Source: a virus
Virus record (IMG/VR): IMGVR_UViG_3300044529_000082
Span: 1-64,000 of that record
Reading direction: 5' to 3' (one strand)
Length of the DNA: 64,000 nucleotides
Part shown: positions 491 through 28,105 of the stretch, piece after piece
Numbering within the stretch: position 1 is the stretch's first letter
How the letters are laid out: each line of letters opens with the position of its first letter
Position numbers and translations under genes: made by a program
Notes under the pieces: generated by a model
The model's input: only the letters and a program-made list of their open reading frames with translations
Database searches by the model: none
Told to the model about the DNA's origin: nothing

Positions 491-881
491 ATACAAACCT
501 GGAATCTGCATCGACTTCGACGGCGTGATTCACAGCTACACCAGTCCCTGGTTGACGGCCACTGAAATCCCGGACCCTCCGGTGCCCGGCGCTTTTGAGG
601 CAATCGCGCGATACATCAACGCGGGTTTTCTCGTGCATATCCACTCTTGCCGGTGCAGCACCCGTCCCGCAATCCGCGCAATCCGCGCGTGGTTCCTGCG
701 CAACGGGGGAGAAGTTTTGCTGAGGCATCTGAAATTCGCGGAGCGCAAGCCGAAGGCGCTCCTGTATATCGACGACCGGGGTTTCCGGTTCGAGGGAGCT
801 TTTCCCACGCCGGAGGAAATCCTCGCGTTCAAACCTTGGAACAAGCGAGCGCAATCTGACAAATCCGGTAACTGTTCTTAG
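480..881 (+). CDS. HAD-superfamily phosphatase (polynucleotide 3'-phosphatase / 5'-nucleotidase-like)
   Basis: HAD motif I CIDFDGVIH, a (H)SCR motif II, and KPKA..YIDD motifs III/IV. Start placed at ATG480. Confidence 0.8.
   Translation: MPAKYKPGICIDFDGVIHSYTSPWLTATEIPDPPVPGAFEAIARYINAGFLVHIHSCRCSTRPAIRAIRAWFLRNGGEVLLRHLKFAERKPKALLYIDDRGFRFEGAFPTPEEILAFKPWNKRAQSDKSGNCS
868..876 (+). promoter_or_regulatory. GTAACTGTT late-promoter-like motif (copy 1)
   Basis: The exact 9-mer recurs upstream of + strand late units. ATG lies 7 nt downstream. Confidence 0.65.
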
Positions 882-993
882 GCATGATTTTCGTTGTTCT
901 TTGATAGTGTCGGTGCGCCGTCGCCCAGGTCGGCGCGTTACAAGTGCTGGGCCGGGCGCCGCGCACGAGAACGAAGGCGCCCAGAATTTTTCT

Positions 994-1029
994 TGCGGGT
1001 TTCGTTTGGCTCATAATCACCCGCAACCA
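994..1029 (+). ncRNA. tRNA-fMet-like minihelix (acceptor stem plus CAT anticodon loop, no D or T arms)
   Basis: TGCGGGT/ACCCGCA stem, internal CTCATAA loop, 3' A-CCA, followed by an ATTT trailer. Confidence 0.55.
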
Positions 1030-1030
1030 A

Positions 1031-1103
1031 TTTGCGATAGCTCAAATGACCAGAGCAGCGGAACGATAAACCGAAGACGGGGGTAGGATTCCCCAACGCG
1101 AAC
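1031..1103 (+). tRNA. Degenerate tRNA-Ile(GAT)-like cloverleaf
   Basis: Acceptor TTTGCG/CGCGAA, D arm GCTC..GAGC, anticodon arm CGG..(GAT)..CCG, T arm GGGG-TAGGATT-CCCC. It has several mismatches and non-canonical loop bases. Confidence 0.6.
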
Positions 1104-1107
1104 GACT

Positions 1108-1130
1108 GGGGCATCGTTACTGCTCCACCA
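1108..1130 (+). ncRNA. tRNA-Ala-like microhelix
   Basis: GGGGCA-TCGTTAC-TGCTCC-ACCA gives G1:C72, G2:C71, G3:U70, A73 and CCA. Confidence 0.55.
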
Positions 1131-1246
1131 ATTTTGAATCGGACATGTCGTCGTCGCCGGTTCAATGCGCAAACAGTCGCACCATGCCGAGCGGCCAACC
1201 CCGAGGCGATGCAAGTGCGAGCGGTGCAACTCCGAAGGGAACTACG

Positions 1247-1279
1247 GGGGAGCCTCCTTTACGGGGGCTCCCCTTTTTT
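1247..1279 (+). terminator. Rho-independent terminator
   Basis: GGGGAGCCTCC-TTTAC-GGGGGCTCCCC followed by T6. Confidence 0.9.
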
Positions 1280-2983: not shown

Positions 2984-3253
2984 ATGAAACAGAAGATTTG
3001 GTTTAGCCCGGGAGTCCGGATGGCCGCTGAAGGCTCGGCCCGAGGATTTTCGATTGATATGGATGCCGCGTGGGACCTGACCGCGGGCGCCGCGAAAGCC
3101 GTCGTCAAGGCGGTCGCCGCCGTTGTTGTCTGCGGGCTCTGCTTCGTATTCCTTTGGATGCTGCTCGGCGCGATTATCGGCCCCGCGACCGGCGGGAGCG
3201 TAGGCGCAGGTTTTGTTCTGCTCAGCATGCTTGGGGTTTTTCGCCGCCGATGA
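2984..3253 (+). CDS. Small membrane protein (2 predicted TM segments)
   Basis: Two hydrophobic stretches and a C-terminal RRR. ATGA-coupled to the recombinase gene. Confidence 0.65.
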   Translation: MKQKIWFSPGVRMAAEGSARGFSIDMDAAWDLTAGAAKAVVKAVAAVVVCGLCFVFLWMLLGAIIGPATGGSVGAGFVLLSMLGVFRRR

Positions 3254-4351: not shown

Positions 4352-4684
4352 ATGCAAGTTTTTGCTTTTTACGACCCGGCGGACCCGCACCCGCTAACGC
4401 GGCTCTGGATTAAGTCTTGGGCCGCCCGGGGCTGGGTGCCAAGGCTGATTCTGCCATCCGATACGGAGCGGCTGACGCTCAGGCAAGCGGCGAACCGGCT
4501 AGGCGGCGGACTTCTGGTTACCGCTGCGACGATAAATTTCTCGCGCGGTCCCAGAAAGAAGCACTTCAAAACTACAAAGGCGCCGGACGTTACCGGCGAC
4601 GTGGTAATTTTTGAGCGCGGCCCGCTAGGGATAGAGAAGACGGAGGAAGACGTATTGCATTGCGGCAGGACCCTCGAATGCTGA
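4352..4684 (+). CDS. Hypothetical protein, possibly a glycosyltransferase-like fragment
   Basis: LWIKSWAARGWVPRLI resembles the N-terminus of phage GT-A-like proteins. Confidence 0.5.
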   Translation: MQVFAFYDPADPHPLTRLWIKSWAARGWVPRLILPSDTERLTLRQAANRLGGGLLVTAATINFSRGPRKKHFKTTKAPDVTGDVVIFERGPLGIEKTEEDVLHCGRTLEC

Positions 4685-7653
4685 CCCAGGCCACAAAGGA
4701 TTTAGTTGCGGAGTGCGCGCCTCTACTACATGAACGGAGGCGCGGCGCAGTAGCGCAGCGGCTTATTGCGTTCTATCAGATTAAGGGAATGCGGGTCGGT
4801 GGAAAGGATAGCGACAAGAAAACGCTGCCCATTATTACGGCCTTCCTTCACAATCTCATGGAGCAAGGGACCGAGGGAATGACCGCCGCGGCCCAGCTTC
4901 TATGGACCCCCACGCTTTTCACCCCGAAACCTCAATCTGTTATCGAAGTTTGGCAGCTTTTTGATTCGGCGGACCGCGGCCTTATCATGGGGGCTGCACG
5001 GTTGGGCAAATGTCTTCACCCAGATACGCTTTGCCGCAAATTTGACGGCACAGAAATTCGGGCTGGGGACGTAAAAGTAGGAGATTTGTTGGCCGGAGAT
5101 GACGGCACCCCACGCAAGGTGCTAGGGACCGTTGCGGGTCGGGAACAGTTATTCAGAGTATCGCCGCATAACTGTCCGGACTTTTTGTGCACTGGAGACC
5201 ACATTCTTTCGCTGATGTGCACGCATAAAAAGCCAAATAACGGAGGGAAGTCTTACAGTTCACAATACGCTCCGGGCAAAATTATTGACGTTTCTGTTAA
5301 GGAGTATCTTCAGTGGTCCGCTACACGTAGGCGGCATTACGCGCTGTTTATGCGCGGCTTTGAAAGACCCGAGGCGAGGCTTAGAGTTGACCCTTACATT
5401 TATGGTTCTTGGCTGGGAGACGGAACCTCGTGCAGATGCGAGCTGACTTCGCCAGACGGCCCGATGATGAATTCTTGGGTGAACTACTGGGGCGGCCTAG
5501 GATTTCGTGTGGTGGAAACGGATAAGCCGATAACTAAAAGCGTTCGGGGTCAATCGCCGGGAGACCACATCTGGCCTAATGCTTGGGTTAGGCGAAGTAT
5601 TTTCGGTAGAGAAAAGCGCATACGGTATAAATATCAAATGGCTTCGACGCGCCAACGGCTGGAGCTTTTGGCGGGAATTATCGATGCTGACGGAACCTCG
5701 ACCGGTTCTTCCTATAACGTGGTGTCAAAGTGGAAAACTTTAGCAGACGATATTGAAAAGCTGGCTCGCGGACTGGGGTTTGAAGTTCACCGGCACGCGC
5801 GCAAACATGGAATTAAGTCCAGCGGCTTTTCAGCGACTTATTACCATATCACTATTCAGGGAGACTGTGCTCGGATTCCGACTCGCGAAAAACGAGTCAC
5901 AAGTCCTCCAGACCGAACCGTTGACGGAATTCGCGCCACGCGGTTTGTGGTTGCCCCCGATGCGGTTCAAGACTATGCAGGCTTCACACTAGACGGAAAT
6001 CATCGGTTTCTATTGGCTTCTGGAATTGTCACACATAATAGCTTTTCTATGGGTGTGCGCCTTTTCTTGGAATGGGTGCGGGACCCCGAATATACAACGG
6101 TCCGGGTGCTCGGACCTAGCGAGGACCATCTTGAACAAAATCTTTTTTCTCACCTTGTCGGACTTCACAAAAACGCATCGCTGCCGATGCCGGGCGAAGT
6201 CGGCGAGCTTTTCATTGGACTTAACCGGCGTGAACAGATGTCTTCTATCAAAGGCATTGTTATCCCGAAAGGGAATTCCAAAAAGGCCGGGCGGCTGCAA
6301 GGAGGACACCGGCGGCCCAGGACGAAGCCGCACCCACGATTTGGAAATCTCTCGCGCATGTTCATCTTTCTCGACGAAATTGAAAATATACCTAACGGTG
6401 TGTGGCTTGATATTGATAACGTCCTCTCCGAAATTGAAAAGGGCTCCCAAGGGTTCAAAGTGTTCGGCGCGTACAACCCCACAAATCCGTATGACGAGGT
6501 CGGCAAACGAGCTGAACCCCCGTTTGGATGGGGAAACCTGGATGCCGATACCCACTTTCGATGGAAATCAGTTCGTGGTTGGGACACTCTCCGACTTGAT
6601 GGCGAACGCTGTGAAAATGTGGTGCAAGGAAAGATTGTCTTCCCTGGACTGCAAACACGTGATGGCTTAGAGGCAATCGCGCAGGGAGCTGGCGGCCGGA
6701 ATTCCCCGGGCTACATGACGATGGGCCGCGGCATGTATCCCCCGGTCGGGCTCGCTGCTACCGTTGTTCCCGCTGGCATGATACCGAAGTGGCGCGGCGA
6801 ATTCGTTTGGTATGACCCGCCGCAGCCAGTGGTCGGCGTTGACTTGGCTTTTGAGGGCGGCGACTCCGCGATTTACACCCTGGGGAAGTGGGGCAAGGCG
6901 AGCGGCGCGAAATTTCCGCCCAGCCTGGAGCACCCGAACGGGGTAACGATTATGTTCAAGGACCGCAGCGGACAAGTCACTCCTCGCTGGGGCCTTGAAG
7001 CGACGCAGCAATTTGTCCTCCCGAAAGGGGACACGGTCGCGATGAAAAATAACATCATCGAATTCAATCGAAAGGCCGGAGTCCGACCGGAGTTTTTCGC
7101 GTGCGACCGGACCGGACACGGCTCTGGCGTAGCGGACTTGCTGCGCTACGAATGGTCCACCGCGATTTGGGACGTGAACTATACCGAGAGCGCCGGTGAC
7201 GAGAAGCTGATGGTGGAGGACACGAAAGTTTGCAAAGAAATGTATGAACGAATGTATTCCGTCCTCTGGTTTGCCCTCCGACAGTGGGGAGAATTTGGAT
7301 ACCTCCTGCTTAATCCTGCTCTCGACATGTCAAAGCTTACTCAGCAAATTACGCAGCGTGAAACCCGAACGATTAACGGTCGTTCAAAGGTCGAATCTAA
7401 AACGGACTATAAATCTCGCGGGTTCGGTTCTCCAGATGATGCAGACTCGCTTACACTCCTTGTACACGCTGCCCGAAAAGGAAGCGGCCTTTCATTGTCT
7501 CGTAGAGGAGAAAACCCTGATGTTCCTGGCGGCTCGCCTTTCGACGACTGGCCCGGCGAGGACTACGCAGGGGGCGTGAGAATTGACCCCACGAACCGGA
7601 GCGATTTTCTCGACGAGCGGATGCAGCCCGATTATGGAATGGCGATTTTATGA
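4678..7653 (+). CDS. terL: Terminase large subunit containing an intein
   Basis: Walker A GAARLGK/S, Walker B FIFLDE, coupling motif AYNP, nuclease GVDLA...DRTGHG...SPDDADS. Located upstream of the portal. Confidence 0.9.
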   Translation: MLTQATKDLVAECAPLLHERRRGAVAQRLIAFYQIKGMRVGGKDSDKKTLPIITAFLHNLMEQGTEGMTAAAQLLWTPTLFTPKPQSVIEVWQLFDSADRGLIMGAARLGKCLHPDTLCRKFDGTEIRAGDVKVGDLLAGDDGTPRKVLGTVAGREQLFRVSPHNCPDFLCTGDHILSLMCTHKKPNNGGKSYSSQYAPGKIIDVSVKEYLQWSATRRRHYALFMRGFERPEARLRVDPYIYGSWLGDGTSCRCELTSPDGPMMNSWVNYWGGLGFRVVETDKPITKSVRGQSPGDHIWPNAWVRRSIFGREKRIRYKYQMASTRQRLELLAGIIDADGTSTGSSYNVVSKWKTLADDIEKLARGLGFEVHRHARKHGIKSSGFSATYYHITIQGDCARIPTREKRVTSPPDRTVDGIRATRFVVAPDAVQDYAGFTLDGNHRFLLASGIVTHNSFSMGVRLFLEWVRDPEYTTVRVLGPSEDHLEQNLFSHLVGLHKNASLPMPGEVGELFIGLNRREQMSSIKGIVIPKGNSKKAGRLQGGHRRPRTKPHPRFGNLSRMFIFLDEIENIPNGVWLDIDNVLSEIEKGSQGFKVFGAYNPTNPYDEVGKRAEPPFGWGNLDADTHFRWKSVRGWDTLRLDGERCENVVQGKIVFPGLQTRDGLEAIAQGAGGRNSPGYMTMGRGMYPPVGLAATVVPAGMIPKWRGEFVWYDPPQPVVGVDLAFEGGDSAIYTLGKWGKASGAKFPPSLEHPNGVTIMFKDRSGQVTPRWGLEATQQFVLPKGDTVAMKNNIIEFNRKAGVRPEFFACDRTGHGSGVADLLRYEWSTAIWDVNYTESAGDEKLMVEDTKVCKEMYERMYSVLWFALRQWGEFGYLLLNPALDMSKLTQQITQRETRTINGRSKVESKTDYKSRGFGSPDDADSLTLLVHAARKGSGLSLSRRGENPDVPGGSPFDDWPGEDYAGGVRIDPTNRSDFLDERMQPDYGMAIL
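5011..6039 (+). mobile_element. Intein (343 aa) with LAGLIDADG homing endonuclease
   Basis: Starts K|CLHPDT and ends VTHN|S. Contains GSWLGDG and LLAGIIDADG motifs. Confidence 0.93.
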
Positions 7654-25452: not shown

Positions 25453-26106
25453 ATGATTACTTCACTGGACCAAACTTTGTTTTTTGCTTGGAATCTTTTG
25501 GGTCTAAAAGAAGACCCCAAAGGATTTGAAAAATTTTGTCATCGAATTAGACAAAATAGGACGCGAGAGTCTTGGAGTGAAGACCGGTGGCAGAAGCATT
25601 TTAAACAAACTGAAATCTGGAATAAAAACAACCCGGAGCAGCGTAAAAAAATAGCCAGAAAAAGCGCGGCAGAGATTCGCGGTCCGGCCACAAGAGTGCC
25701 GTTGACTCCGGAAGAAAGAAAACAATATCGGCGCGATTATGAAAATATTCGTCGGAGAACAGACCTTAATTGGAAGATTAAAAAATACGTTACCACAGAT
25801 ATTCTGCAAGCGTTAAAACGGACTAAAAGTAAAAAGCACGTCCGAACCGTCGCGCTTTTAGGATGTAGCATCGAAGAGTTTAAGCAAAAAATTGCATCGC
25901 AATTTACAGCCGCAATGTCTTGGAAAAATCACGGACCGGTTTGGCACCTTGACCATATTCGTCCGAAAAGGAGCTTTGATTTGAATGACCCCGCGCAGCA
26001 GGCTCAATGTTTTCATTGGTCGAATTGGCAATCGCTGAGCGCCTTCGAGAACCAAAGCAAGGGCGCGAAGTGGAACGGAGTTGACTGGAGGTTTCAGGAT
26101 GCCTGA
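25453..26106 (+). CDS. HNH homing endonuclease
   Basis: LLGCS...MSWKNHG..WHLDHIRP...CFHWSNWQSL..FENQSKG; AT-rich. Confidence 0.85.
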   Translation: MITSLDQTLFFAWNLLGLKEDPKGFEKFCHRIRQNRTRESWSEDRWQKHFKQTEIWNKNNPEQRKKIARKSAAEIRGPATRVPLTPEERKQYRRDYENIRRRTDLNWKIKKYVTTDILQALKRTKSKKHVRTVALLGCSIEEFKQKIASQFTAAMSWKNHGPVWHLDHIRPKRSFDLNDPAQQAQCFHWSNWQSLSAFENQSKGAKWNGVDWRFQDA

Positions 26107-28105
26107 GCGAGTTCTAGACTGGGATTCGAACTGGTTTCAAGGCGTCCAAAGTTCGATGGACCCCTCCCAGGTCCCGCTTGGCTACGCGTGGTCTGTTGAG
26201 AACATGCTGAACCTCGGCGGCCTGTGGTCGTGCCGCCCAGGTCACCGGTGCATCAAGCTCCTGCCGGACGGCAATCTTCAGGGCGCCGCGATTTTCCGTC
26301 CCCAGGTCGGAATCGAGCAAATCGTGGTCGCGATTGACGGGCTGCTCTATGCGGCGGCCTATCCGTTCTATGAAGGCTGGCGCCAGCTCCCCGGCATTCA
26401 GCTCTCCGCTTCTGCAAAACAGATTTTCTGGGCTCTCGCAGTCCAGTCCGCGGAGCGGCTCTCGCTCGACATCGCCGCGGGAATCAAAGTCATCGAGCCC
26501 AAGGTTGTATTGTTCGCGCAGGACGGTCTTCTGACTGCTCCGGCGTGGTATGACGGCTCAAATTCTGGCCACGTGCGCGGCGACCCCTTCGGCACTCCTT
26601 CTGGCGGACCTATGGTGTGGGTCGGCGACCGCCTGTGGGTCGCAGCAGGCAATCAGGTTTACGCGAGCGACGTTGCCAATCCCTTTTCGTTTCGTGAGCA
26701 GATTTATCTCGGCGGCGCGACCAGTTTTTTCTTCGCCGATGAAGTCACCGCCATGCAGAAAACCCCCTCGATTGAGTCGCCGCAGCTCATGGTATTCACG
26801 GGCGACAACGCTTCGCTCTTGCAGGCCAACATTCGCGACCGGTCGCAGTGGCCTACTACCGTCGATTTTCAAGTCGAGGTTGTGCAGGTCGGCTGCCTGT
26901 CTCAAAAATCGGTCGTGTCCCATTACGGACACATCATATGGTTCTCTCCTTCGGGAGTAGCCATCTACGACCCGGCTACTAGTGGCAAGCTAACAAGCCG
27001 CCTTCCTGTCCGTGATAGCGAAATGATGGTGTCTAAAATAGGCTTGTCTGATGACCTATCGCTGGTCTGTGCCGCAACCTTCGGGCAATACATGCTGATG
27101 TCGGTGCCGCACGAGGACGTCCACAATAAGCACACTTGGGTCCTAAATAACGCATCCCTGGCATCGCTCAATGACGACTCTGGTCCGTGCTGGTCTGGTC
27201 ATTGGACCGGGACGCGTCCAGTGGAATGGTTGTTTGGCGAGATTGCCAGCCAGGAGCGCATTTATCACGTTGCGGCGGACACTGACGGGCATAATCACTT
27301 ATGGGAATCCTTTACTCCGGACCGGCTGGACGGCGGGTGTCCGATTGCCTGGAAAATAGAGACCCGCGGCTATTTTGGGCAGACGGCAGCCATCCAATCG
27401 AAGCCCCCCGGCGAGCGGGTCCGGTTGCTCTATGTCGATGTCGCCCTGGCGGGCATTTCTGAGAATCTGGACCTGGGGGTCTTCTTTGCGGGCGGCACGC
27501 GCGGCGCTTTTCGTCAGCTCATGGACCGGCGGCTGAACGTGTCTAAGGGCTCCCTATCCTACACGCTCAAGCTGGACGCGAATACGCAGATTTTTGCATT
27601 CAAGCCGCAGAGCCGAAATGAACGGACCCAGGACGCGAATCAAATCGACAATGCCGAGGACGGCTCGTGCCCAGTCGAGCGCTTTGACCTCGACAATATC
27701 GACGATTCTTTTCAGCTAGCAATCTGCGGGCACGGCCCGGCAACGATTCGCTGGATTCGGCCCTGGGGGCTCACCGTCCCGCCCAATGTGGACGGTAACG
27801 GAATGGCGTGCGAAGATGAAGTCACTCTGAAGGCGGTCCGGTTCGATGGCTGGGGCGCCCACGGCGACACGCTGCAAGAACTGGTAGATACGCTAACTGC
27901 GGCACCTATGTTTTTCTTCGAGTCCAACGAGACGGCATCGCTTTCGATAGACGATTTCATAGCCATCGGGACCGGCTACGCGCAGTCGGTGATATCACAG
28001 CGCGCGGCGGACCGGGTAGCGAAAATCATTGCCACGAATCAGGCCGAAATGGAACTGGCTTCCGTGCGACCGCCGACGCTTTCAACCGGATTGGGATTTG
28101 AATAA
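26099..28105 (+). CDS. Tail nozzle / tubular protein B-like (beta-propeller)
   Basis: ~670 aa, beta-rich, with DRLWVA and VGCLSQKSV..YG..IWFSP motifs typical of podophage stabilisation proteins. Confidence 0.6.
   Translation: MPERVLDWDSNWFQGVQSSMDPSQVPLGYAWSVENMLNLGGLWSCRPGHRCIKLLPDGNLQGAAIFRPQVGIEQIVVAIDGLLYAAAYPFYEGWRQLPGIQLSASAKQIFWALAVQSAERLSLDIAAGIKVIEPKVVLFAQDGLLTAPAWYDGSNSGHVRGDPFGTPSGGPMVWVGDRLWVAAGNQVYASDVANPFSFREQIYLGGATSFFFADEVTAMQKTPSIESPQLMVFTGDNASLLQANIRDRSQWPTTVDFQVEVVQVGCLSQKSVVSHYGHIIWFSPSGVAIYDPATSGKLTSRLPVRDSEMMVSKIGLSDDLSLVCAATFGQYMLMSVPHEDVHNKHTWVLNNASLASLNDDSGPCWSGHWTGTRPVEWLFGEIASQERIYHVAADTDGHNHLWESFTPDRLDGGCPIAWKIETRGYFGQTAAIQSKPPGERVRLLYVDVALAGISENLDLGVFFAGGTRGAFRQLMDRRLNVSKGSLSYTLKLDANTQIFAFKPQSRNERTQDANQIDNAEDGSCPVERFDLDNIDDSFQLAICGHGPATIRWIRPWGLTVPPNVDGNGMACEDEVTLKAVRFDGWGAHGDTLQELVDTLTAAPMFFFESNETASLSIDDFIAIGTGYAQSVISQRAADRVAKIIATNQAEMELASVRPPTLSTGLGFE

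Follow-up and report, generated by a model that had tools for sequence, protein, structure and literature searches.

Acceptor-stem microhelices have so far been laboratory tools, and they are the basis of the 'operational RNA code' held to be older than the anticodon; the synthetic microhelix-Ala and minihelix-Ala of Francklyn and Schimmel (1989) are reportedly substrates of alanyl-tRNA synthetase, whose identity rules are reviewed in PMC9976931. In phages, the tRNA cluster of T4 also encodes the stable RNAs C and D, of more than 100 bases, which are co-transcribed and processed together with the tRNAs; they are far larger than a microhelix and, to our knowledge, have not been credited with alanine identity. 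According to PMC4131195, mycobacteriophage DS6A encodes a transfer-messenger RNA (tmRNA) made up only of the tRNA-like domain (TLD); for a molecule of this kind, the same paper, citing Mao et al. 2009, states that it inhibits tmRNA, possibly through titration of SmpB. Clusters of tRNA genes in phages, and the tRNA gene fragments that are their decay products, are treated in bioRxiv 10.1101/2022.07.05.498093. A literature search returned no description of a natural acceptor-stem microhelix from phages, and the 10,006 candidate RNAs of PMC10690425 may include it. Here, we analyzed a 64,000-nucleotide stretch of DNA (the window), which is the first 64 kb of the 72,298-base IMG/VR record IMGVR_UViG_3300044529_000082, an uncultured peat phage genome rated complete by CheckV, in which few proteins have Pfam or PHROGs matches. 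Our subject is a small-RNA unit at positions 868–1279 and, within it, a 23-base alanine-type acceptor microhelix. We favour, at a probability of about 0.55, the reading that the unit is a shrunken small-RNA island, mostly decaying, in which the intact microhelix works via alanine identity as a mimic of an acceptor end.

A preliminary description, made from the letters of the window alone, had seen in this unit four acceptor-stem elements, (a) to (d), and had interpreted all of them as selected mini-tRNAs. All four were recovered at the positions given for them, but they proved unlike in kind, and the microhelix, element (d), is the one for which the case for selection held:

1108–1130, + strand: element (d), alanine-type acceptor microhelix GGGGCATCGTTACTGCTCCACCA, with six pairs, the 7-base loop TCGTTAC, A73 and CCA.
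1131–1135, + strand: ATTTT trailer, directly after the CCA of (d).

The fold of (d) has a predicted energy of −8.4 kcal/mol. G1110, paired with T1124, forms the G3:U70 wobble, and the arrangement GGGG...CTCC ACCA further supplies A73, G1:C72, G2:C71 and an encoded CCA, all of which belong to the identity set of alanyl-tRNA synthetase. Having 23 bases and neither a T arm nor a D-loop analogue, the element is not a tmRNA, nor a TLD-only tmRNA. It is flanked on one side by a tRNA-like gene and on the other by what probably remains of a long tRNA-like gene, and it shows every feature by which the family was defined, namely a stem of 4–6 pairs of the form GGGN.../...NTCC, a CGWTA loop, ACCA, an A/T trailer and a location in a tRNA/tmRNA island on the same strand.

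Other phages carry the same element. At the syntenic place in locus L170, GGGGGCCACGTTATGCCTCCACCA is followed by ATTTTT, and pattern scans of IMG/VR returned further copies in L246 (24 bases 3' of a GGTAACTGTTC motif), L249, L252, L262, L238, L265 and L266. As these patterns fixed GGGG and CTCCACCA, two fairer tests of G3:U70 were carried out. An IMG/VR scan in which positions 3 and 70 were left free returned the same five loci, all with G:U. A scan of the 3.86 Mb of collected loci, on both strands, that fixed only the CGWTA loop, NCCA and at least four pairs added four copies (G003, L143, L187 and L212), each of them GGGC...GTCC-ACCA and hence with pair 4 flipped; its matches in the unrelated loci L004, L019, L032 and L106 differed in their stems and lacked the A/T trailer. 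Altogether, ten distinct microhelices were collected (window, L170, L246, L249, L252=L266, L262=L265, L238, G003=L143, L187 and L212), and the element is present on at least 12 viral or metagenome contigs beyond the window.

Nine of the distinct sequences were aligned with MAFFT. Paired cells made up 95.6% of the alignment, compared to 52–73% in slid controls, and changes on both sides of pairs 4 and 5 were found in five cells, compared to 1.7 in shuffles, of which none out of 500 reached the observed value. G1:C72, G2:C71 and G3:U70 were the same in all nine sequences, A73 and CCA were invariant, and the CGWTA loop was conserved; ATTTT followed the CCA in seven of the nine, the other two having ACTTTT and GAATTTT. 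The L170 copy was omitted since trial alignments shifted its 5' strand; its pairs, read by eye, add G5:C68 and C6:G67. Because the stem has compensatory changes while G3:U70, A73 and CCA do not vary, the pattern points to selection and not to decay, in line with the preliminary description, which had proposed that an alanine microhelix was retained by selection and that covariation across related phages should be sought. A constant wobble next to flipping neighbours is the prediction of alanine identity rather than of a mere helix, although the sample is small. Element (d) is conserved and, judged from these comparisons, probably functional.

The microhelix is co-oriented with the tRNA genes. 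It follows tRNA-Met in L249, L143 and L266, lies within a nine-tRNA array in the AT-rich L238, and is placed directly 5' of a long (95–125 base) tRNA-like gene in L170 and L252. In L262 and L143, a sigma-70-like promoter with 10 of 12 consensus positions precedes the microhelix on its own strand. When used against cultured phages, the microhelix with its flanks gave 13 weak matches, all in coding sequence or in unannotated records.

Several candidates were set aside. The GGGG-pattern scan returned 33 loci, from which six microhelices were read (L238, L246, L249, L252, L262 and the doubtful L244); about ten of the loci were read as 3' ends of the tmRNA type, with a T arm and GCTCCACCA, and in only three of these did ARAGORN predict a permuted tmRNA. 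The remainder look like chance. L244 was excluded from the family for its coding-like context, L178 2462–2483 for having four pairs and A3:U70, and L193 for a 3-base loop on the minus strand. One further microhelix pattern matched two loci, both in coding-like sequence, and was taken as chance. Of seven matches in genome contigs, six were coding-like and one was a copy of the viral contig L265 filed in a metagenome-assembled genome of Planctomycetota, from which no host was inferred. Finally, a pseudoknot between AACGA (1101–1105) and the loop bases TCGTT (1114–1118) had no consistent partner in other family members when inspected by eye.

The microhelix is embedded in the following features of the unit:

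868–876, + strand: promoter-like motif GTAACTGTT, which opens the unit.
884–905, + strand: what is left of a gene for a small membrane protein (ATG ATT TTC ... TGA, six codons), joined to TTGTTCTTTGAT.
954–983, + strand: hairpin (a), in which GGGCGCC (954–960) pairs with GGCGCCC (976–982) in a 7-pair GC stem with a 15-base loop, followed by AGAATTTTTC.
994–1029, + strand: element (b), an internally deleted initiator-type tRNA-Met that keeps the acceptor stem, the 5' strand of the anticodon stem, the CUCAUAA loop and ACCA.
1031–1103, + strand: element (c), a degenerate tRNA-like gene that matches RF00005, has an anticodon-like GAU loop and lacks both T-psi-C and CCA.
1141–1240, + strand: element (e), a probable decayed long (95–125 base) tRNA-like gene, from an alignment with L252.
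1246–1279, + strand: intrinsic terminator, a 12-pair stem (1246–1274) with nine GC pairs followed by TTTTTTCT, which closes the unit.
909–1103, strand not indicated: 195-base contig in a peat metatranscriptome library (run X4, record 8), identical to the window and joining (a), (b) and (c).

Element (b) differs little from full tRNA-Met genes in what it has kept. It shares 34 of 36 bases with those of L192 and L186 and 32 of 36 with that of L136. Three gaps, of 16, 16 and 9 bases, correspond to the loss of the D arm, the variable loop, the T arm and the 3' strand of the anticodon stem; with 41 of 77 positions gone, the D arm, anticodon stem and T arm are incomplete. The initiator traits of the full genes of the relatives, i.e., the CTCATAA loop, T1:A72 and ACCA, are present, and the element folds as a 7-pair hairpin. 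ARAGORN predicted tRNA-Met(CAT) in 32 of the 97 related loci (within L133–L229), many of which are short or overlap one another, and these genes comprise 22 distinct sequences. Their acceptor stems start with TGCGGG and end with CCCGCA; next come ACCA, or a variant of it, and in most genes ATTT. A shortened tRNA-Met was sought in all loci, and element (b) of the window was its sole instance. Since relatives carry a full tRNA-Met at this place and the truncated form occurs only in the window, (b) is most likely a remnant, and the proposal of the preliminary description that it is a selected mini-tRNA did not hold. With its 7-pair stem and ACCA intact, this remnant may nevertheless have acquired a separate function.

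Among the relatives, L136 is the closest at this locus, and its serine recombinase is 63–64% identical to that of the window phage. Its island lies about 2.3 kb 5' of the same recombinase gene and consists, in order, of the motif GTAACTATT, a 37-amino-acid ORF (open reading frame), TTGTTCTTTGAT, a full tRNA-Met, about 240 noncoding bases, the motif again and the homologue of the gene at 1355–2614 of the window. The ORF encodes a hydrophobic product and opens, after the same motif, with ATGATTTTC; in L136, TTGTTCTTTGAT is the sequence directly 5' of tRNA-Met. Hairpin (a) has no CCA and no relative was found for it, and the predicted fold contains a stronger, competing hairpin at 913–966. It had been taken for an acceptor mimic, a view that these results do not confirm; it is an unconserved hairpin.

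Element (c) scored 19.3 bits against RF00005, below the cut-off of 29 (E 0.007 for the genome), and nothing else in the genome of 72,298 bases matched this family at E ≤ 10; ARAGORN made no call on it even at an 80% threshold. Its minimum-energy fold is a cloverleaf. However, it departs from a canonical tRNA (7/4/5/5 stems, U33, T-psi-C loop and CCA end) in that its anticodon stem has three pairs with mismatches at both ends, position 33 is C, the T loop is TAGGATT and the discriminator is followed by GAC, with no CCA. In its core, (c) is similar to two tRNA-like genes, one in G003 (76% over 33 bases, E 0.013) and one in L170 (76% over 25 bases, E 0.44), which are single units with an insertion of 65–75 bases in the D region:

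L170 1812–1952 and L134 (G003) ~239–383: D-insertion tRNA-like gene, with a structured insertion and stems that covary between the phages.

Both genes have perfect 7-pair acceptor stems, with compensatory differences between the two, 5-pair anticodon stems, TAT or CAT anticodons and a common T loop, GTCAATA; the L170 unit scored 30.4 bits and folds with a z of −4.0. We read (c) as a decaying member of this class. The Ile(GAT)-like cloverleaf of the preliminary description is thereby retained as far as the fold and the GAU-like loop are concerned, but the short anticodon stem, C at position 33 and the missing T-psi-C loop and CCA give (c) the look of a degenerate gene and not of a designed one.

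The region 3' of (d) was assigned by comparison with L252. Positions 1091–1150 of the window align with it at 74% over 61 bases (E 1.6e-4), beginning 17 bases 5' of the microhelix and extending as far as the first bases of L252's long tRNA-like gene, and because the alignment runs into that gene, the region most likely represents a decayed copy. Matches of (e) to G003, L137 and L136 were short and weak (E 0.16–4.9), no acceptor stem or CCA is left in it, and its fold is no better than that of shuffles. A tmRNA remnant was also considered for (e) but gained no support, as the similarity extends to 67% over only 36 bases (E 1.2).

Fuller islands were found in relatives. That of L266 comprises a tRNA, a tRNA-Met, a tRNA-like gene, the microhelix and a tmRNA, and that of L170 comprises tRNA-like genes, the microhelix and a long tRNA-like gene. 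By Rfam, two islands hold a full tmRNA (L178, 78.7 bits; L266, 77.3 bits), while none was detected in the genome of the window phage or in G002, G003, G004, G007 and G011. The two tmRNA genes (L266 3447–3784 and L178 2653–3038) are in one piece, both have G3:U70, and they end in ACCA (L266) and TCCA (L178). On unrelated contigs, ARAGORN predicted permuted two-piece tmRNAs (L233 2057–2373, L235 11238–11611 and L254 3183–3503), with tags ending in ALAA and GGCAGTA T loops. The long tRNA-like RNA of 95–125 bases was seen at L170 2176–2291, on the minus strand of L252 after the microhelix, at L134 388–482 and at L178 ~2510–2640; it has an acceptor stem of 6–9 pairs, a T arm, usually NCCA and a large structured domain in place of the anticodon arm, and it matched no Rfam family. 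Other observations in these islands were two tandem paralogous tRNA-like genes of 71 bases with the T loop TGAAAAT (L166 1441–1511 and 1518–1588), tRNAs with 8-base anticodon loops, to which ARAGORN assigned a four-letter anticodon (L166 1593–1669 and L266 2802–2877), and a noncoding stretch common to L143 (~7030–7110) and L212 (~3010–3095), 3' of the microhelix or tRNA-like genes, with no Rfam match.

As regards the unit as a whole, matches to the 11-mer GGTAACTGTTC with up to two mismatches numbered 24, compared to 9.8 ± 3.2 in shuffles. In the window, GTAACTGTT occurs on the + strand at 868, 1305, 4336, 8466, 17601, 23976, 31414 and 43613, 6–10 bases 5' of ATG starts. Among the 22 distinct tRNA-Met genes of the relatives, ACTGTT ends 6–9 bases 5' of the first base in seven and CTTTGA does so in four. 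This placement suggests that the motif is a promoter element and that transcripts would begin at or near the gene, leaderless or nearly so, which would support the single transcription unit at 868–1279 proposed in the preliminary description; its layout from motif to strong terminator was confirmed. A scan of 700–1450 for promoter-like sites returned none on either strand. Likewise confirmed was the statement that there is no credible ORF: nine ORFs of 39–97 amino acids overlap the region, eight of which had no tblastn match in the related loci (E ≤ 0.01), and the ninth matched only where it is antisense to the start of the next gene, while one of two control ORFs was matched (2615–2899, 80%). 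Trailers rich in A and T, which had been noted for three of the elements, do follow (b) and (d), but (a) is followed merely by AGAATTTTTC.

Neither tRNA nor tmRNA genes were predicted by ARAGORN, be it in the window or in the whole genome. Rfam gave no match in the window at gathering scores and six weak ones over the whole window at E ≤ 10, none of them within the region of the RNA unit, and RF00023 (tmRNA) had no match in the genome at E ≤ 10. The folding check recommended together with ARAGORN gave hairpins of seven and six pairs for (b) and (d) and a cloverleaf for (c). The whole + strand of the unit folds somewhat better than shuffles (z −2.4). Stems of at least six pairs followed by NCCA number 173 on both strands of the genome; since such hairpins are frequent by chance, the case rests on homology and not on counts of hairpins, and it is by homology to relatives that (b) and (d) are real. 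The RNA-library contig attests presence in that library, and strand, RNA ends, level and element (d) lie outside its reach. In run X4, positions 400–908 and 1104–1800 were uncovered, and this single contig of low depth is uninformative on processing or on (d). Two further peat DNA runs (X2 and X3) contain the region with zero differences. The unit is real and probably transcribed; what had been observed in it was partly confirmed, and the interpretation given was partly supported.

According to the reading we favour, islands of this type would belong to a group of uncultured phages of ~70–75 kb. The fuller ones would combine an initiator-type tRNA-Met and odd tRNA-like genes with the alanine-type microhelix, a long tRNA-like gene and, in some cases, a tmRNA, and every gene would end in NCCA and then ATTT. 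In the window phage, the island would be read from the GTAACTGTT motif through the terminator and would have decayed around (d): the tRNA-Met would have lost the D arm, half of the anticodon arm and the T arm, (c) would have degenerated, (e) would be barely recognizable, and the 23-base microhelix would be the only part kept intact. Host tRNA-processing enzymes would release it, RNase P acting at the 5' side and cleavage within the AUUUU trailer producing the 3' side. The host alanyl-tRNA synthetase would then bind and probably charge the microhelix, which would mimic, or compete with, the acceptor end of tRNA-Ala and tmRNA. A further proposal, which we put forward tentatively and at less than even odds, is that the 23-mer is a natural, gene-encoded microhelix-Ala, released and charged by the host enzyme, that serves to tune or hijack the charging of tRNA-Ala or tmRNA, or to donate alanine. 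If so, it would be the smallest natural aminoacylatable RNA.

Several points weigh against the favoured reading. Seven of the ten microhelix sequences came from patterns that required GGGG...CTCCACCA, the sequences that test G3:U70 fairly are few and possibly related by descent, and the shuffle control ignores relatedness among the sequences. A helix of five or six pairs is a poorer synthetase substrate than a tRNA. No relative with a recombinase identity above 63–64% spans the RNA unit, so that (b) and (c) could be young remnants or kept elements, and (b) combines almost no point changes with a full 7-pair stem, both of which selection could explain. In addition, the microhelix lies just 5' of ORF starts in L187, L246 and L249, at 7–20 bases, which would fit a role in processing or in a leader. 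This last point leads to an alternative that we consider unlikely, although not negligible, in which the microhelix is punctuation only, a minimal RNase P or RNase E substrate that separates RNAs and makes mRNAs with short leaders, with no role for alanine. All RNA genes of the islands end in NCCA and ATTT, and several ORFs begin 4–7 bases later. Such starts, with CCA, ATTT and ATG in succession and no Shine-Dalgarno sequence, were observed after tRNA or tRNA-like genes at L134 7120–7130, L156, L172, L252 and L249, where tRNA processing may create the 5' ends of mRNAs. Cutting, however, requires a helix and RCCA and not a wobble at position 3, and G3:U70 is kept in nine of nine sequences in which pairs 4 and 5 flip; the CGWTA loop is conserved too. 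Of the two, we prefer the reading in which alanyl-tRNA synthetase recognizes the microhelix as a mimic of an acceptor end to that of a simple mark for processing.

The interpretation of the preliminary description, that every element from (a) to (d) is a selected mini-tRNA made as a discrete CCA-ended species, appears improbable. It draws on the perfect 7-pair stem, CAU loop and ACCA of (b), which differs from full genes by two point differences, on the cloverleaf fold still found in (c), and on the presence of the (a)-(b)-(c) stretch in an RNA library. However, the truncated Met form occurs in no other locus and full genes occupy the site in relatives, (c) scores 19 bits compared to 30–67 bits in its relatives and lacks CCA, (a) has neither CCA nor a relative, and the RNA contig holds (a), (b) and (c) joined. 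Slightly less probable again is a decoy for defence enzymes that act on tRNA 3' ends, such as AbiEii/MenT nucleotidyltransferases or toxic alarmone synthetases that modify CCA. As stated in PMC7725324, toxins of the AbiE family extend the 3'-CCA of specific tRNAs by further nucleotides, and a decoy role has been proposed for phage tRNAs; bioRxiv 10.1101/2024.07.05.602228 describes FaRel2 as inspecting the acceptor stem and modifying the CCA end. The islands also carry tRNA-Met and tmRNA, which would be typical backups against toxins that target translation. Nevertheless, no such toxin is known to require G3:U70. We give only a very slim chance to the idea that it is the opposite strand that works, as an antisense RNA against both ends of host tmRNA or tRNA-Ala, or that the hairpin is a weak terminator. 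Complementarity to the host ends would preserve G3 and U70 as well, and the terminator scan flags the L262 hairpin with its T run as terminator-like, which also counts against the reading we favour. Against this stand the co-orientation with tRNA genes, the same-strand promoters in L262 and L143, the motif and terminator of the window and the lack of promoter-like sites on either strand of 700–1450; moreover, the four bases of ACCA separate the stem from the T run, which has only four T in the window.

The unit is flanked by protein-coding genes:

441–881: HAD-like gene, the 5' neighbour of the RNA unit.
1355–2614: gene with an ice-binding-like domain (PF11999, E 8e-53), the 3' neighbour of the RNA unit.
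About 2.1 kb 3' of the RNA unit: serine recombinase gene (PF00239).

Relatives were collected with two queries. The 674-amino-acid protein encoded at 26081–28105 gave 15 related viral loci (84–53% identity), the 84% relative being a partial contig that does not include the RNA-unit region, and the recombinase gave nine viral and 80 metagenome loci. That L266 is truly related is shown by its homologue of a 94-amino-acid protein (E 9e-16). No similarity to cultured phages was detected over 441–1400. The HAD-like and ice-binding neighbours, used as queries, returned distant loci only (maximally 52% and 66% identity, respectively), to which the RNA unit is not common; in G004, the ice-binding gene is present and the RNA unit is absent upstream. 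The L136 homologue of the 1355–2614 gene (208 amino acids, L136 1983–2609) has the same N and C termini and no ice-binding-like domain, and for this reason the domain looks inserted in the window phage. A 997-amino-acid protein encoded at 4660–7653 contains an intein with Hint and LAGLIDADG homing endonuclease domains.

Since ARAGORN and Rfam call nothing above threshold here, the RNA gene content of phages appears to be under-annotated, and decayed tRNA genes carry the risk of being mistaken for designed mimics. A conserved natural microhelix gene in phages, if true, would mean that the minimal recognition unit is in use in living systems, and it would offer a handle on how phages interfere with alanine charging, with ribosome rescue and with defences that target tRNA ends.

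Compared with the known systems, the microhelix shares with the T4 RNAs C and D that it is a non-tRNA small RNA in a phage tRNA cluster. Like the tRNA gene fragments described for phage clusters, (b), (c) and (e) look like partial or degenerate tRNA genes of the kind missed or mislabelled by standard tools, at places where relatives have intact genes; in contrast to a one-ended fragment at an integration site, (b) shows clean internal deletions that leave both acceptor strands. The TLD-only tmRNA of DS6A is likewise a phage RNA gene cut down to the alanine-accepting end of tmRNA. However, DS6A retains the whole tRNA-like domain, while the microhelix has no T arm or D-loop analogue, so that binding to SmpB seems unlikely, and in L266 it coexists with a full phage tmRNA. 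The nearest counterpart is microhelix-Ala, with which (d) has in common a few acceptor-stem pairs, G3:U70, A73 and a single-stranded CCA; its G1:C72, G2:C71 and G4:C69 also match the usual stem of bacterial tRNA-Ala. The two differ in that microhelix-Ala is a laboratory construct, whereas (d) is natural, gene-encoded and conserved in phages, with a CGWTA loop of its own and putative charging with alanine.

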